A DNA stretch of 11,709 nt, from UHGV virus genome UHGV-0058547, one strand, 5' to 3'. The position numbers and the translations under genes were made by a program. The stretch's first letter is position 1; each line of letters begins with the position of its first letter. Positions 1 to 11,709 of the stretch are shown piece after piece. The stretch comes from a virus. The notes beneath the pieces were generated by a model that was not told the origin of the DNA, ran no database searches, and was given only the letters and a program-made list of their open reading frames with translations.

Positions 1-699
1 ACCGGAGGAAGTAGGAACAGTAGCGGACTCACCACCACCGGACTCACCACCACCGGACTCACCACCGCCAGACTCACCACCACCATTTTGGGGGGTTGAG
101 GGTTTATCAGAGGGGTCAGCTACAGCACCTGTAGGCTTCCATGTTGCAGCGCAAACAGTACCATCACCCTGACAAACAATGACACCAGTAGCCTCATATT
201 CACAGCCGTTATAGTAGATATAGCGACCACCATCATATGAATCAACATTATTAAATACACCTTCTTCTGGCGGCTTCGCTTCACAAATTTCTTCTGGTGT
301 CGGGTCAGTAGGTTTTTCATCAGGAACAGAACGCTGAATATTACCAACAATATAAGCCGTTAAAGACCAATATTTATCCTTCTGCCCTGGTGAATCGCTG
401 TAAGTACAATCGCCAGTAAAAACAAGACGGAATTCAGAATCAGGCCAGATACCCTCATAAGTTGGTTTAATCCGAGTAAATACACTCTGAGCACTGGATT
501 TAGCACCCTGACAAGCGGAGGCCTGCATAGCAGCATCAATATAGTAAACCGTTATCTTAGAGCCATCCTGATTGGTTATTTGCTTACTTTCAGCATAGGC
601 AGAACTTTGATAAGTGGATTTAGTAATGCTTTCCCATGACTCAGCATGTGAAAAAGGAGAAATGAGGACAGCGGAAAGAATTAATATTTTCCTTCTCAT
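1..699 (-). CDS. gIII: Adsorption/minor coat protein pIII, N-terminal portion (partial; ORF runs off the left edge)
   Basis: ATG at 699 on the minus strand; signal-peptide-like [19 protein letters not shown]. The motif [28 protein letters not shown] resembles the M13 g3p N1 (TolA-binding) segment YEGCLWNATGVVVCTGDETQCYGTWVP (recalled) and is preceded by about 150 aa of another domain, an IKe-like domain order. It ends in (GGGES)4. The frame is open from 699 to 1; I translated 1..141 and the start codons myself. Confidence 0.85.
25..84 (-). repeat. Four tandem 15-nt repeats (ggactcaccaccacc and variants) encoding the (GGGES)4 linker of pIII
   Basis: Direct reading: copies at 25-39, 40-54, 55-69 and 70-84; translation on the minus strand gives GGGES four times. 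Confidence 0.9.
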
Positions 700-3502: not shown

Positions 3503-4084
3503 GTGAAGATGAGTATGCAACCGAATGAAGAAATGGACCTCAGGAAATTTTACGCAGAGGGAACAGCTGACTACTTAAAAACTAAAATCAAAAAAAGCGA
3601 ACGACTTTTAAAAATAAACCAATATCTATCATTTGCCCTCCCTGTCCTAGTTGGAGGATACGCATCGGTTGATCACAGCTCCAAATATTTTGATTTTTTA
3701 GTTTGGGGCACAGGGATATTATCAGTGATAGTCTTGCTTTCTAATTTATACACACTGGTCATGAAGACTGATGAAAATTTATCTCGATATCTGGAATCAT
3801 ACTCTTTCAATAAACTCCTAACTGATTTGTATGGCGAACTGTCGAGCATGTTTAAATCAAAGACAGGCAACCAGCAACCCGCTAACCATTTGTTTTCAGT
3901 GATAAAATCAAAAGATGACTTCAATGCCAAGGAAGATGAAAAATATGTTAGCAATAATGATAAGAAACGGATTATGTTCGACATTCTGGTAAAGAAAAAT
4001 AAAGAATGCGTACGTTGCAATAAAATACCGACTAAATTTAACAAGCGGAAAGGTTGCACAAATTGTGGCAATCTCGTGAAATAA
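3503..4084 (+). CDS. 2-TM membrane protein with C-terminal CxxC-x12-CxxC zinc ribbon (SLATT-like topology); function unknown
   Basis: N-terminal helix, then TM hairpin YLSFALPVLVGGYASV / LVWGTGILSVIVLLSNLYTLV, a charged helical region, and C-terminal ECVRCNKIPTKFNKRKGCTNCGN. Start ambiguous between GTG 3503, ATG 3509 and ATG 3515; GAAAGG precedes. Confidence 0.6.
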   Translation: MKMSMQPNEEMDLRKFYAEGTADYLKTKIKKSERLLKINQYLSFALPVLVGGYASVDHSSKYFDFLVWGTGILSVIVLLSNLYTLVMKTDENLSRYLESYSFNKLLTDLYGELSSMFKSKTGNQQPANHLFSVIKSKDDFNAKEDEKYVSNNDKKRIMFDILVKKNKECVRCNKIPTKFNKRKGCTNCGNLVK

Positions 4085-4287: not shown

Positions 4288-4329
4288 AATCTAAAAGATT
4301 TTGGTTCGCACAATGACGTTATGCTAAAG

Positions 4330-4366
4330 AGGCCGCTGCGGGATTCGATTTTCGCAGCGGCCTTTT
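4330..4366 (+). terminator. Rho-independent terminator ending the RHH/membrane-protein operon
   Basis: 11-bp GC-rich stem AGGCCGCTGCG (4330-4340) pairing with CGCAGCGGCCT (4353-4363), 12-nt loop, then TTTT. Confidence 0.75.
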
Positions 4367-4396
4367 CAACATAACGAGTCCTACATTATGCGCACC
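4364..4396 (-). other. dif-like XerC/XerD recombination site (site 2), long central region
   Basis: Minus strand reads GGTGCGCATAA-TGTAGGACTCG-TTATGTTGAAA. E. coli dif is GGTGCGCATAA-TGTATA-TTATGTTAAAT. XerC arm 11/11, XerD arm 9/11, central region 11 nt. Confidence 0.65.
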
Positions 4397-4555
4397 AACA
4401 TAAACCAAGGGAGAATCCAGTGATTTGTGGACATCCTTGTTCTCGCAGAATATGGATGTGCTGAGTCTGGTTGGTTCGCCTAACGGTTGAAATGTCTTGC
4501 GGCCTTCACTGGGCTTGTTGAGTGTTCTGAATGTTCGCTTCAGGAACTGATTCAA

Positions 4556-5647
4556 ATGAAACGATTAATACTTGCTGCGACTGTAATAAGTGCAAGCCTG
4601 CTGCCATTTACCTGTTCGGCAAATGCCGACTCACTGGGTATCAATAAAGACTGCGATAACCATCCTGTCAGCCAGTACGGCATGGACACCATTACCGCAT
4701 TCAGTCAGTACAAGACGGAATCGAAAAAATTTAAAGATGCACTGACTGCGTTCTGCAATAAAGGCAAAACCATGGGCGACATGGGATTTGAAGCTGCCAA
4801 TGCTCACTCTCTTGCTGAAGCAAGGAAATGGACTGACTCCAGTCTTCCGGGGGGAAATGAAGAGCAGAAAAAATTTTCAGCAGCCATGGGGAGCCTGCTT
4901 TACTATGCAATGCTGAATGGATTCTCTGGTTTTGACTATCCCAGGTCGCCCGAGCAAAAAGAAAAATCAGTAAGCACATTTAATCCAAATGAGATATGTG
5001 ATGACATATCATCTAAAGCAGCCAAATATTCAACCTCGAATCTCCCCCCTCAAGTACAGATTTCATTAGCTGAGTGGAATCAAATCAAAGGCGAGTTTCA
5101 GATGGTGTGTTTTGCGGGAGTTATGGCGGGTAACAATCGCCAGTCGGTTGACTCAAAAATATTGGCTGGAATGAATGATATAGGCCCAGAAGTGAATTTG
5201 AGTGCTTATCGTTCTGGTTCGGAATACCCAAAGCCTCGCAGCAAAAACAACACGGAAAAAATTGATGCTACAGCAAGGGAGAAAGCGGCTGCAAAGAAGA
5301 AAGCAGATGCAGCCAGAAAACAAAGTGCCACCAACAAAACAAAGCAGGCTGACGATTATAAATCCAGGAGTGTTCGCCTTGACTCCCCCGATTTTCAACG
5401 CTTTCAGTCTTCACTCAGAAATGAATTTATGCGGCGAATTGGTGATGCGAAGCGTTTTTCAGGAAAAGAATGTTCAATAAATGTCTGGATGTCACAGAAA
5501 GGTGAGGTTCTGTCAGCCAGGAAGGAATCCGGAGATGAAGAGCTTTGCTCTGTGGTATTGCAGGCATCGAAGGGAATGAGGCTTAGCCCTATGAGTAATG
5601 AAGTTTACGGAGTGTTCCGTAATCCATCCCTCAACTTTAAATTCTAG
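4556..5647 (+). CDS. Secreted (signal-peptide) protein with K/A-rich helical linker and C-terminal TolA domain III-like domain
   Basis: Likely start MKRLILAATVISASLLPFTCSANA (signal peptide) at 4556, AGGA 10 nt upstream. C-terminus GKECSINVWMSQKGEVLSARKESGDEELCSVVLQASKGMRLSPMSNEVYGVFRNPSLNFKF aligns with the E. coli TolA C-terminus GKTCTLRIKLAPDGMLLDIKPEGGDPALCQAALAAAKLAKIPKPPSQAVYEVFKNAPLDFKP (recalled). Preceded by a Lys/Ala-rich stretch like TolA domain II. No TM anchor. Confidence 0.7.
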   Translation: MKRLILAATVISASLLPFTCSANADSLGINKDCDNHPVSQYGMDTITAFSQYKTESKKFKDALTAFCNKGKTMGDMGFEAANAHSLAEARKWTDSSLPGGNEEQKKFSAAMGSLLYYAMLNGFSGFDYPRSPEQKEKSVSTFNPNEICDDISSKAAKYSTSNLPPQVQISLAEWNQIKGEFQMVCFAGVMAGNNRQSVDSKILAGMNDIGPEVNLSAYRSGSEYPKPRSKNNTEKIDATAREKAAAKKKADAARKQSATNKTKQADDYKSRSVRLDSPDFQRFQSSLRNEFMRRIGDAKRFSGKECSINVWMSQKGEVLSARKESGDEELCSVVLQASKGMRLSPMSNEVYGVFRNPSLNFKF

Positions 5648-6102
5648 TTCATGCCGGGTAAGAGTCTTCACTTTTGTGGGGATTCTTATTTTCTTTTTGT
5701 TGTTATTGTCAGCTCAAGCCGCATGGCTCTCCTGCGGAGGGCTTAATATTGGGATAATATTGAAACATCAAAGACAGATGCAGATAAGTACAGAAAACCG
5801 ATAATAACAATTAAACAGTAAGTCTGTATAAGAGAATAACAGAATATATAAAAGAATTAACCCCGGTTGGCGATTTGGCGATGGTAACACAGATATTTAA
5901 ATCTGTAAAATGGTTATATTTATTTTTTTATTTACCCACCCTATCGGGTGATTCCGGCGCAGTCCTGACCCTGAGTACGCTCCCTGTAATGCACCATGCG
6001 CAACGCCAGAGTCAGTGGCAATGCAAAGCCATGACTAAGGCCAAAATCACCCCAAAACCGCATACAGGCAGTCAGCGGTCACGATGTAAGCAAAATACGA
6101 GA

Positions 6103-6122
6103 TACTGTATAAATAAACAGCC
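6103..6122. promoter_or_regulatory. LexA (SOS) box-like palindrome TACTGTATAAATAAACAGCC
   Basis: CTGT-N8-ACAG with an AT-rich spacer; 16/20 matches to the E. coli consensus TACTGTATATATATACAGTA. Contains a TATAAA -10-like hexamer. Lies in an 0.8-kb noncoding stretch about 340 bp upstream of the HNH_3-like gene. Confidence 0.5.
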
Positions 6123-6460
6123 CTGCAATTGTCAGGCATATGCGCCCTCTCACACTGACACCCCCCCTGTTCCGCCCTGTTTATTGCATCTGTACAGCCA
6201 TCTGAGCGCATCCGGCTGCAACCTGACGCATTTGCATGTGCCGTATTAATGATGCCACACAGAGCGCCTGACGGTTTGTACCATCATCTGTCACAATTCA
6301 TTGTTTGAAAAATTTTACATTTTATTTTTTGAAGTGATTACATAAATATAATCCATCTCTCCGGCATGAGTGCCTGACTGAAGGTGAATCGAAAAAGAAG
6401 GACCCGCCCCGATTCTTTTTACTCCCTTCCCTTTCAGTTAAATCACGCAGGAGAAATATC

Positions 6461-7408
6461 ATGCCCCGCTACAAAAAAGGTATCCGTAATAATTGCTTTC
6501 ATCAAAATTATACTCATGACGTATTGTTCCCCGGCGCAACATTCAGAACCCGACATAATGGAGAATGCGCCATTCTTGGCCGCTCTGATGATAAATCAAG
6601 GCGAGGCTATTATGTCGTGGAATTCAAAGACAGTGGCATCATCAAGGAAGCCTATGGCTCGCATATTAAAACTGGTTCTGTATCAGACGAAGCTTTTCCA
6701 TCATCGGAGGAAGAACGACGAAAGTTACTGATGACACCAAAATATTACGGCGTCGGATATATTGGTAATGGATGTCATTCAACTATTGAAAACACCCGAA
6801 CACACCAAAGAACGAGAGCATTCATACTCTGGCATAACATGCTGGCAAGGTGCTACATGACAACCAAAGGGAAGCAGTATTTTAAAGGCTACAAAGGTGT
6901 CACTGTATGCGAGCGATGGCATAACTTTCAGAACTTCTGCAATGACCTTCCAAAATTGCATGGCTACAACAAATGGAAGGATAATCCGGGAGAGTATGAG
7001 CTCGATAAGGATTACTCACATCGCCGGATTTATTCTGCTGACACGGTGGCATTTATCAGCACAGAAGAAAATGCCAGGGAAGCTGGATTACGACGCGTTG
7101 CCATGAAGATTCCTTCCGGGCATTATCATGAAATAAATAAAATTCGAGATGAGATATTAATGGAGGCTGAAGATGAATTAAAAAACAATCAAATTCATTA
7201 TGAAGTTGTTCTTGACGGGAATATGAAAGTAATCCTGTGTGAAACTCCTTATGGCACAGTGTTGTTCTGGCCTCTCACAAAAAAGATTCAGCGTAATTGC
7301 TACATGATTGATGGTGATGTACAGGTTTATGTTTATTACCTGCGCTGGCTCATACTTCAGTGGGAAAACAGAAATCCCGACATAAACTGTGTTGCTACAA
7401 CCTGTTGA
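6461..7408 (+). CDS. 315-aa protein with central degenerate HNH_3-like module; putative DNA-binding protein or inactive homing-endonuclease relative
   Basis: AGGAG 7 nt upstream of the ATG. Central motif W-HNM-LARCY ... YFKGYKGVTVCERWHNFQNFCND ... YELDKDYSHRRIYSADTVAFISTEENAR matches the phage HNH_3-family pattern W..M..RC ... YGGRGI.VC..W..F..F ... IDRID.DGNY.P.NCRW.T..EQ..N (recalled), but the canonical catalytic residues are not evident. Confidence 0.6.
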   Translation: MPRYKKGIRNNCFHQNYTHDVLFPGATFRTRHNGECAILGRSDDKSRRGYYVVEFKDSGIIKEAYGSHIKTGSVSDEAFPSSEEERRKLLMTPKYYGVGYIGNGCHSTIENTRTHQRTRAFILWHNMLARCYMTTKGKQYFKGYKGVTVCERWHNFQNFCNDLPKLHGYNKWKDNPGEYELDKDYSHRRIYSADTVAFISTEENAREAGLRRVAMKIPSGHYHEINKIRDEILMEAEDELKNNQIHYEVVLDGNMKVILCETPYGTVLFWPLTKKIQRNCYMIDGDVQVYVYYLRWLILQWENRNPDINCVATTC

Positions 7409-7589
7409 TGATGCTATAAAATAGTCATAAAATAACCGGCATTTCACAATGCTATCTATTAATAAGAAGAAACGAACATTCAGGATGTATCTGTAATTCC
7501 GCTGTTGCAGTGATTTTCTGTGCCAGAAAACAAGTGACAACGTCTGGCAGCTCATTGCAGAAGGCTAAATGCCAGCACTTCGTGCAGTC

Positions 7590-7619
7590 ATTTAACATGT
7601 TCAACACATTATGCGCACC
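7590..7619 (-). other. dif-like XerC/XerD recombination site (site 1)
   Basis: Minus strand reads GGTGCGCATAA-TGTGTTGA-ACATGTTAAAT. XerC arm 11/11 to E. coli dif; XerD arm 9/11, with the last 9 nt ATGTTAAAT identical; 8-nt central region. Confidence 0.7.
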
Positions 7620-7657
7620 AATGGTAAGGATGGCGGGAACTGGCGTTACCGGTGCCG

Positions 7658-7891
7658 TCATTGGTCACAGACCGTAATCCACTGGCCCAGGACGTCTTTC
7701 AGGCAATGTTGGCATAAATCCAGTTTTAAGCGATTACTGTCACCAAAAATTGAACCGTATCCAGCTAAGTGATTAACAGACAGAAACTCATTGAACTCAA
7801 TGTCATCTACCACCGTCTTCGCATGGCGACCACAGCGATCGCAGGTCTTCGCACATAACATTACAGTATCGCTGGATGTGAAAAATTGCAT
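7658..7891 (-). CDS. 77-aa Cys-rich protein (CxxxCxxC ... CxxC); putative zinc-binding protein
   Basis: AGGAG 5 nt upstream of the ATG at 7891; six cysteines including C-x2-C pairs at residues 17/20 and 60/63. Same orientation as the phage core, downstream of gIV. Confidence 0.55.
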   Translation of the reverse strand: MQFFTSSDTVMLCAKTCDRCGRHAKTVVDDIEFNEFLSVNHLAGYGSIFGDSNRLKLDLCQHCLKDVLGQWITVCDQ

Positions 7892-8008: not shown

Positions 8009-8317
8009 TCATATAAACCAATAGACCGTCCTTACGCCATTCTGGTTATCAATAACATAGCCGCATTGTTTCCTTAAAAATTCTTCTGCTAAATCAATGG
8101 CTTTTACAGAAATCTCATAAGAAGGAAGTAAAGTGTATCCTTTCCCTTCACTGGCAGCTGCTTTGATCGCATCCAGAGTATTATCAATCAGTAACAGAGC
8201 AAGTGATGCTTCATTTACCTGAGCCGAAGAACTTCTGGCTGCAAGTGTCATTGTTTTTGCTTCTTCCGCTGTAATCGTTCGTTCTGCCAGAGCAGATAAA
8301 ATCCCATAAGAATCCAT
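8009..8317 (-). CDS. 102-aa hypothetical protein
   Basis: ORF in phage orientation immediately downstream of the gIV-end hairpin; weak GGGG RBS; no recognisable motif. Confidence 0.4.
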   Translation of the reverse strand: MDSYGILSALAERTITAEEAKTMTLAARSSSAQVNEASLALLLIDNTLDAIKAAASEGKGYTLLPSYEISVKAIDLAEEFLRKQCGYVIDNQNGVRTVYWFI

Positions 8318-10754: not shown

Positions 10755-11096
10755 TTAAATCACCCTGTTTGCATAATCAAGAAATTTTTGTTTTAAATCG
10801 AAAACAAAAACACTGATACGAGTAACCATAATAACGTTAACACACGCCTGAAAATGGTCAGGCAATACAGACGCCATTAAATGGGAGAAATCAGCAGGTA
10901 AACCGTTATACATGACCTCAGCAAGGTACTGCATTAAAAGCGTAACAGTTGTTGTAATTAATGCGACCAATGCAAAGGCGATTAATCCTGTTCTGGTAGC
11001 AAGTCGAGCTAAAAAAACCGCCACATAGCCAATAAACAAAGGAACAAGACCAATAAGAAAACGCAACAATGCAGGAATACCTAATAATAAAGGCAT
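10755..11096 (-). CDS. gVI: Minor coat protein pVI
   Basis: MPLLLGIPALLRFLIG... versus M13 pVI MPVLLGIPLLLRFLGF... (recalled). ATG at 11096 overlaps the gIII TGA by one base; the track's GTG at 11099 is one codon upstream. Confidence 0.88.
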   Translation of the reverse strand: MPLLLGIPALLRFLIGLVPLFIGYVAVFLARLATRTGLIAFALVALITTTVTLLMQYLAEVMYNGLPADFSHLMASVLPDHFQACVNVIMVTRISVFVFDLKQKFLDYANRVI

Positions 11097-11709
11097 CACT
11101 CACCCCCTTTGCGAAGCAATGAAGTTAAAGAAGTAAAGACATACCAGAACGTAAGGCAATAAAAAACCCATGAAAGAACATCTTTAATAGTCAGTAATTT
11201 ATCGCAACCAATATCAATCTGATAAACCTCTCCGGGAAAAATAATAAAATCAGAGCAGCCGTTACCATTGGGTAAATTAGGCAGCATAGCACCTTTATTT
11301 AAAAATGCTTCCCATAAAGCACCGTGAGAATCCTTTTCAATTCCCAATTCAGAATCAGCTAAAGTAGAAGCGCCATCTAATTCAGAGTCGCCCTTTCCAT
11401 AACGAGAATCACCACCTGAAGGGTCAGCAAAACGGCCAGCCCCCCGCGTAAGATTGTTAATGGAATCGTCAAGACGATTTATATTATTCCTGGTTTGTTC
11501 ATCGGCATTTTTTTTATCATCTGATGAAGTGTCTTTCTCCGTTAATTTATCATGAATATCGCTGGCTATTTTGGGTGAAGCACCTTCGATCGCAGACTGA
11601 ATATCACCTTTAGAAAGACTGGAACCACTAGAGCCACCGCCAGAACTACCGCCAGAACTACCGCCAGAACTACCGCCAGAACTACCGCCACCGGACTCAC
11701 CACCGGACT
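11096..11709 (-). CDS. gIII: Adsorption/minor coat protein pIII, C-terminal portion (partial; ORF enters from the right edge)
   Basis: Frame is open from the window edge to the TGA at 11096-11098 (translated by hand). C-terminus ...NLPNGNGCSDFIIFPGEVYQIDIGCDKLLTIKDVLSWVFYCLTFWYVFTSLTSLLRKGGE parallels M13 g3p ...ECRPFVFGAGKPYEFSIDCDKINLFRGVFAFLLYVATFMYVFSTFANILRNKES (recalled). Preceded by (GGSS)n and GGES linker repeats. Confidence 0.88.
   Translation of the reverse strand, partial: SGGESGGGSSGGSSGGSSGGSSGGGSSGSSLSKGDIQSAIEGASPKIASDIHDKLTEKDTSSDDKKNADEQTRNNINRLDDSINNLTRGAGRFADPSGGDSRYGKGDSELDGASTLADSELGIEKDSHGALWEAFLNKGAMLPNLPNGNGCSDFIIFPGEVYQIDIGCDKLLTIKDVLSWVFYCLTFWYVFTSLTSLLRKGGE
11641..11688 (-). 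repeat. Four tandem 12-nt repeats (cagaactaccgc) encoding the (GGSS)n linker of pIII
   Basis: Direct reading of 11641-11688; minus-strand translation gives alternating GG/SS. Confidence 0.9.

Follow-up and report, generated by a model that had tools for sequence, protein, structure and literature searches.

Gene III at the two ends of the contig

The window, a stretch of 11,709 nucleotides of a filamentous phage genome, carries gene III in two pieces at its opposite ends. The question raised by this locus is why the two pieces do not read into each other, and whether sequence has been left out between them. The N-terminal part runs on the minus strand from 699 to 1 (233 codons, beginning with MRRKILIL), and its start is identical to that of the RefSeq 'attachment protein' CDS in the loci of two relatives. 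The C-terminal part runs from 11707 to 11096 and encodes 203 amino acids and the stop, with two nucleotides remaining at 11708-11709. The first-pass annotation had described gene III as cut by the window ends and had stated that a direct join of 11709 to 1 would shift the frame of the attachment protein (pIII). Both statements held. The 699 nt on one side make up exactly 233 codons and the 614 nt on the other make up 204 codons and 2 nt. The literal circular join was rejected as biology, as the frameshift leads into early stop codons. Coordinates of the individual features are compiled in Table 1.

Table 1. Positions of the features identified in the window, with the evidence for each.
Feature	Position	Strand	Evidence or remark
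Putative foreign tail, 24 nt, 'ATVPTSSG' in the gene III frame	1..24	.	exact match to microvirus pilot gene through nt 27
pIII linker, (GGGES)x4 part, residues 206-225, 15-nt repeat	25..84	-	Tandem Repeats Finder; translation; homologous linkers in C10/UM146/ECONIH2
pIII second domain, N1-type TolA-binding, four Cys, residues 130-195	115..312	-	PDB 4EO1, PF05357
pIII first domain, IKe-type pilus-binding, residues 20-128	316..642	-	PDB 4EO0, PF21443
pIII start codon and signal peptide, residues 1-19	643..699	-	translation; aligns with IKe signal peptide (NC_002014)
gVIII	988-746	-	
gV	1509-1192	-	
gII	2615-1521	-	
Accessory ORF, 'mobilome CxxCx(11)CxxC protein' in relatives	3509-4084	+	PF27874 precomputed match
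363-aa ORF with signal peptide (MKRLILAATVISASLLPFTCSANA)	4556-5647	+	secreted TolA-C-terminal-domain protein, in the 3.2-kb module
dif-like (attP-type) site ATTTAACATGTTCAACACATTATGCGCACC	7588..7622	.	prophage right and left arms meet; aligns with the dif at the UM146 boundary
gIV	9745-8387	-	
gI	10754-9660	-	
gVI (DUF5455)	11099-10755	-	next after gene III
pIII C-terminal domain and membrane anchor (LSKGD...LLRKGGE)	11096..11617	-	stop 11096-11098; overlaps gene VI start
pIII linker continuation: partial GGGES-type unit, one 12-nt GGES unit, GGGSS(GGSS)4GGGSSGSS	11618..11709	-	contig end

By exact look-up of the C-terminal gene III fragment, the window was found to be an entire metaSPAdes contig (ena:ERZ1311532:NODE_3971_length_11709_cov_4.07) with a coverage of about 4x. 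Its ends have no direct overlap reaching 6 nt, so the contig was left open by the assembler. The k-mer-length direct terminal overlap which marks an assembler-closed circle is absent from the window, whereas a microvirus contig of the same assembly possesses one of 55 nt. This microvirus contig (5,951 nt) represents a complete circle with about 5,896 unique nt. The minus strand of the window holds a complete inovirus gene set, and no host DNA was found between gII, the accessory genes, the dif-like site and the genes downstream of gIV.

The window showed 98.2-99.8% nucleotide identity to the filamentous prophages of UM146, C10 and ECONIH2, with 99.3-99.8% for UM146 and C10 and 98.2-98.8% for the tandem prophage of ECONIH2. 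All three prophages are integrated at dif, next to hipBA, C10 and ECONIH2 possess tandem copies, and the UM146 prophage abuts an exact 28-bp dif. ECONIH2 was named in the description of the UPphi viruses, which comprise UPphi901 and relatives reported at 98% or more identity and were placed beside IKe and I2-2 (Shapiro & Putonti 2020, Virus Evol; PMC7307601). The features of this group were found here as well. The near-identical core genes gII-gV-gVII-gVIII-gIII-gVI-gI-gIV and two small genes downstream of gIV are shared with the UPphi prophages at 98-99.8%. Shared too are a dif-like site, corresponding to an integration at dif that is often in tandem, reverse-oriented accessory genes beside the att site and a variable number of GGGES repeats in g3p. 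The UPphi g3p proteins differ from each other chiefly in this repeat number (PMC7307601). The two small ORFs (8009-8317, 102 aa; 7658-7891, 77 aa) are syntenic with two hypothetical CDSs downstream of the prophage secretin gene and gave no Pfam match above cutoff; the corresponding region is intergenic in IKe and M13. Unlike its UPphi relatives, the window contains an extra 3.2-kb module (4397-7619), has a unit of about 11.7 kb against about 7.6-8.5 kb, and begins with an apparently artefactual tail of 24 nt. Judged by its sequence, the phage of the window is an already described E. coli filamentous phage, a member of the UPphi group and a relative of IKe.

The window, a linear contig of low coverage, is compatible both with a circle, replicative or virion, and with two neighbouring copies of a tandem array. 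Since the relatives are tandem prophages at dif and the contig has no terminal overlap, its two gene III fragments may stem from adjacent identical copies. It is very unlikely that the fragments come from two different phages, that is, from co-resident UPphi variants or from non-identical tandem copies. Copies within one array can indeed differ, as in ECONIH2 (PMC7307601) and C10, and the window, with its 3.2-kb module between two dif-like sites, could derive from a heterogeneous array. However, the N-terminal part (99.3-99.4% at the nucleotide level) and the C-terminal part (identical in protein sequence) match the same full-length genes, and the copies in sequenced arrays carry identical gene III. 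Moreover, such an origin bears on topology alone and leaves the explanation of the frame mismatch unchanged.

The first 24 nucleotides and the linker of pIII

The frame mismatch is very probably explained by a UPphi-type phage contig which is broken in the linker repeat of gene III and carries a tail of microvirus sequence at its start. The 24-mer at this position (ACCGGAGGAAGTAGGAACAGTAGC) was found in none of the 5,426 E. coli genomes searched and in a single contig of the viral and metagenome collections, the above 5,951-nt microvirus (NODE_8562_length_5951_cov_19.07), which shares assembly ERZ1311532 with the window. The match sits inside the gene for a DNA pilot protein of 410 aa. Counted from nt 1, the window and the microvirus agree at 27 of 27 positions and thereafter at 38 of 42. 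Most of the E. coli matches listed at the contig start begin at 24, 26 or 27, the others at 31 or 42, and none of the listed E. coli relatives covers positions 1-23. Of 20 related microvirus pilot proteins, 19 have the peptide ATVPTSSG, and among the loci retrieved the 24-mer was confined to those coding for the identical pilot protein. The most economical reading of these matches is that the first 24 nt are a chimeric tail from the more abundant microvirus and not phage sequence. The tail most likely came from a single chimeric read joined at a microhomology coding for Gly/Ser. Outside nt 1-27, the longest exact word common to phage and microvirus is 13 nt, so a pure graph-level mis-join through a shared k-mer was judged unlikely and a chimeric molecule or read would be required.

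A phiX174 spike-in was also weighed as tail donor, by way of its protein H sequence, and was dismissed: the pilot protein of 410 aa that contains the tail is that of a gut microvirus of 5.9 kb. The identical pilot protein also turned up in five or more other places, of which several are labelled as human gut metagenomes, and about 1,940 homologues are present in the protein database.

On the reading of a chimeric tail, the repetitive Gly-rich linker would have been impassable for the assembler, so that the contig begins and ends within it. A chimeric read would have extended one end of the 4x contig by 24 nt of a microvirus which is about 5x more abundant. This tail alone would produce the apparent frameshift, while the true ends would share codon and repeat phase.

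A genuine in-frame insertion of 24 nt in the pIII linker of an inovirus subpopulation, acquired from the microvirus pilot gene by microhomology-mediated recombination, is very unlikely. The pIII linker is known from phage-display practice to tolerate insertions, and the tail keeps the frame of gene III, with microhomology at both junctions (GGA at one, and at the other CACCACCGGA, common to the window end and the microvirus sequence). A 6-nt overlap (ACCGGA, 11702-11707 being equal to 1-6) would also close gene III in frame and retain ATVPTSSG, but only if the last 2 nt of the window are ignored. These last two nucleotides (CT) continue as a GGGES unit and not into the tail. The perfect identity of the tail to a co-assembled contig of about fivefold higher coverage also argues against an insertion, as does the absence of the junction between tail and gene III from the viral and metagenome contigs and from all of the 5,426 complete E. 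coli genomes. Furthermore, the contig ends after 24 nt of foreign sequence, where a single chimeric read would be expected to run out. If true, an insertion would mean that inovirus and microvirus have recombined in nature, and the pilot-protein peptide in pIII would amount to a natural 'phage display'.

Once the chimeric tail is set aside, the two gene III parts fit together in a single linker. Tandem Repeats Finder detected a 15-nt repeat coding for GGGES at 24-84 (4.1 copies, 93% matches) and a 12-nt repeat coding for GGSS at 11636-11690 (4.6 copies, 100% matches), which the first-pass annotation had taken for two linkers with different repeats. In full-length relatives, (GGGES)n runs straight into GGGSS(GGSS)n and forms one linker of 38-60 aa from the N1-like to the C-terminal domain. 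The idea of two linkers was accordingly abandoned in favour of a single composite one, as both repeat types are contiguous in the relatives. Domains 1 and 2 are connected by a short Pro-rich hinge of 12 residues. The sequence 'ggact' stands at both true ends of gene III (25-29 and 11705-11709), which agree in codon phase and in repeat phase. Overlapping these 5 nt, with nt 1-29 dropped, resulted in an open frame of 1284 nt which encodes a pIII of 427 aa with a linker of 49 aa, inside the range of the relatives.

The first-pass annotation had instead concluded that the window omits linker sequence and that the true unit is 11710+3k nt. On this model, the window would be a faithful circular permutation with ATVPTSSG as genuine linker and 1+3k nt missing between 11709 and 1. 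Although the frame arithmetic does demand a length of 1 mod 3 and some units are possibly missing (up to 7 GGGES-type units in relatives against 4+1 in the window), this model is hardly tenable, as ATVPTSSG occurs in no relative and is identical to the co-assembled microvirus, and no added bases are needed for the homologous ends to overlap in phase. The count of a codon boundary at position 1 and two spare nucleotides at the other end was correct, but the boundary itself falls within the foreign nt 1-24 and not in gene III. Likewise, the requirement of 1 mod 3 stood while the permutation did not: the mismatch is attributed to the foreign tail, and the 'ggact' join gives a unit of 11,680 nt, which is still 1 mod 3 yet shorter than the window.

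Repeat units may be missing from the linker of the window, which does not fix the true repeat number. Of the 53 E. coli relatives, 52 match only up to 11704-11705, because the last unit of the window is a 12-nt GGES; strain EC23 alone aligns to the window end. This last linker unit (11692-11709) is one Gly codon short, which reflects either genuine variation by 3 nt or another error at a contig end.

The ends of low-coverage metagenome contigs can hold some tens of bases from a different genome of higher abundance. Arguments on frame or 'missing sequence' which are drawn from the last bases of such contigs are therefore unsafe.

Domain architecture of pIII and its putative receptor

Domain organization of the reconstructed pIII was analyzed by comparison with structures, Pfam profiles and the IKe protein. 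Residues 20-128 correspond to residues 20-128 of IKe g3p (PDB 4EO0, E 9e-27) and to the G3P pilus binding domain of Pfam (PF21443, G3P_pilus-bind; E 7e-26, profile positions 2-105 of 105). Residues 130-195 correspond to residues 130-197 of IKe g3p (PDB 4EO1, E 1.1e-25). This N1-type domain also matches the N1 structures of fd/M13 (2G3P, 1G3P, 1TOL and 1FGP, E 1e-11 to 2e-13; about 1e-13 for the first three) and, over residues 135-176, Phage_Coat_A (PF05357, E 2.9e-6), and it possesses four cysteines (Cys139/166/176/183). BLASTP of the 427-aa protein gave a collinear alignment to IKe pIII (432 columns, 52% identity, E 5e-136). The C-terminal domain is collinear with residues 262-432 of IKe pIII and does not differ from that of C10 and UM146. 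The functions assigned to 4EO0 and 4EO1 follow the Pfam names and Jakob et al. 2012.

The pIII thus has the pilus-binding domain first, the TolA-binding N1 second and full-length collinearity with IKe including the C-terminal anchor, as in the IKe-type (Lineavirus) g3p. The IKe-like domain order, reverse to that of M13/fd, which had been proposed from the position of the cysteine motif, was confirmed by these structure and profile matches and by the collinear alignment. For domain 1, the phage records contained relatives in IKe and I2-2 (46.8% identity) and in the Erwinia PEar phages (45%), and in no other phage. An If1-type architecture was rejected: the N1 match was no more than weak (2X9A, E 0.004), and domain 1 did not match If1.

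Signal peptide, pilus-binding domain, short hinge, N1, one Gly-rich linker and C-terminal domain are common to the pIII of the window and that of IKe and I2-2 (genus Lineavirus). They differ in the linker, which is made up of GGGES/GGSS in the window and of GG(T/D/S)-rich sequence in IKe. IKe and I2-2 are also without integration at dif, in contrast to the UPphi phage (PMC7307601). With the pIII of Ff phages (M13/fd/f1), the window protein shares a homologous N1 with the same four-Cys pattern and Gly/Ser/Glu-rich linkers of GGGS/EGGGS type. In Ff, however, N1 comes first, followed by the F-pilus-binding N2, and there are two Gly-rich linkers, whereas in the window N1 is second and the linker is single. 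No N2 homologue was found in the window pIII, the matches to fd g3p structures being confined to residues 5-87 of fd.

The infection course of Ff and IKe phages is established, that of the IKe type proceeding by way of N/I2/P-type conjugative pili and TolA, and together with homology it suggests how this pIII may act. Domain 1 would bind the tip of a conjugative non-F pilus and the N1 domain would then bind domain III of TolA. The flexible (GGGES)n(GGSS)n linker would tether both to the C-terminal domain, its length drifting by repeat slippage. The C-terminal domain would anchor pIII in the virion tip and insert into the inner membrane.

From sequence comparison, a conjugative non-F pilus (N/I-type) is a reasonable inference for the putative receptor. 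The first-pass annotation had hinted at a non-F pilus, and the same had already been proposed for this phage group: the UPphi authors suggested IncI pili as receptor and failed to obtain new infections (PMC7307601). At 46.8% identity of domain 1 to IKe, the pilus specificity may differ. The domain order of pIII, the probable conjugative-pilus receptor and the variation in GGGES copy number are already present in the literature, and the finding is an ordinary one. Gene III of the window is one more copy of a UPphi/IKe-type attachment-protein gene and raises no new question about gene III.

The dif-like sites, the 3.2-kb module and the accessory arm

Within the dif-like site at which the prophage arms meet, a match to the XerC arm was found at 7609-7619. 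A search of the window for dif that allowed up to 3 mismatches found nothing, and the dif-like sites of the window are all diverged. At 4383-4398 and 7606-7621, ACATTATGCGCACCAA (the XerC arm of dif) occurs as a direct repeat which flanks the 3.2-kb module. The module is missing from the 8.4-kb prophage of UM146 and partly replaced in C10, and what is left of it in E. coli A27 lies next to dif and is not accompanied by phage core genes. By analogy with CTXphi and its RS1/TLC elements, the window looks like a UPphi core with a second, Xer-dependent module.

The module encodes the secreted 363-aa protein, the C-terminal ~100 aa of which are homologous to domain III of E. coli TolA (PF06519, E 6e-11; structures 3QDP, 2X9A_B and 1TOL, E about 3e-9). 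Of 5,426 complete E. coli genomes, 29 carry the gene at full length, in each case on the chromosome. TolA domain III is the target of the N1 domain of g3p, and the protein may act as a decoy in superinfection exclusion; such a periplasmic decoy could also serve colicin tolerance. No description of a decoy role for a TolA-like phage protein was found in the literature searched.

Just upstream of the first dif-like site, at 4317-4376, a strong GC-rich stem-loop (GGCCGCTGCG...CGCAGCGGCC) is followed by TTTT. It was seen as an inverted BLAST self-match against the relatives and could be a terminator or a part of the att site or origin. In UM146 and ECONIH2, the position of the accessory ORF at 3509-4084 is taken by a zinc-binding protein of the ECs_2282 family and a hypothetical protein, a replacement which marks the accessory arm as mosaic.

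Among further E. coli records, EC5502 (NZ_CP092647.1) matches the phage at 15-16 separate places, which points to an array of unusual length or with scattered copies. Two matching places are reported on plasmids, and a 386-kb record of E. coli KE48 (NZ_CP141085.1) also carries a UPphi attachment-protein gene.
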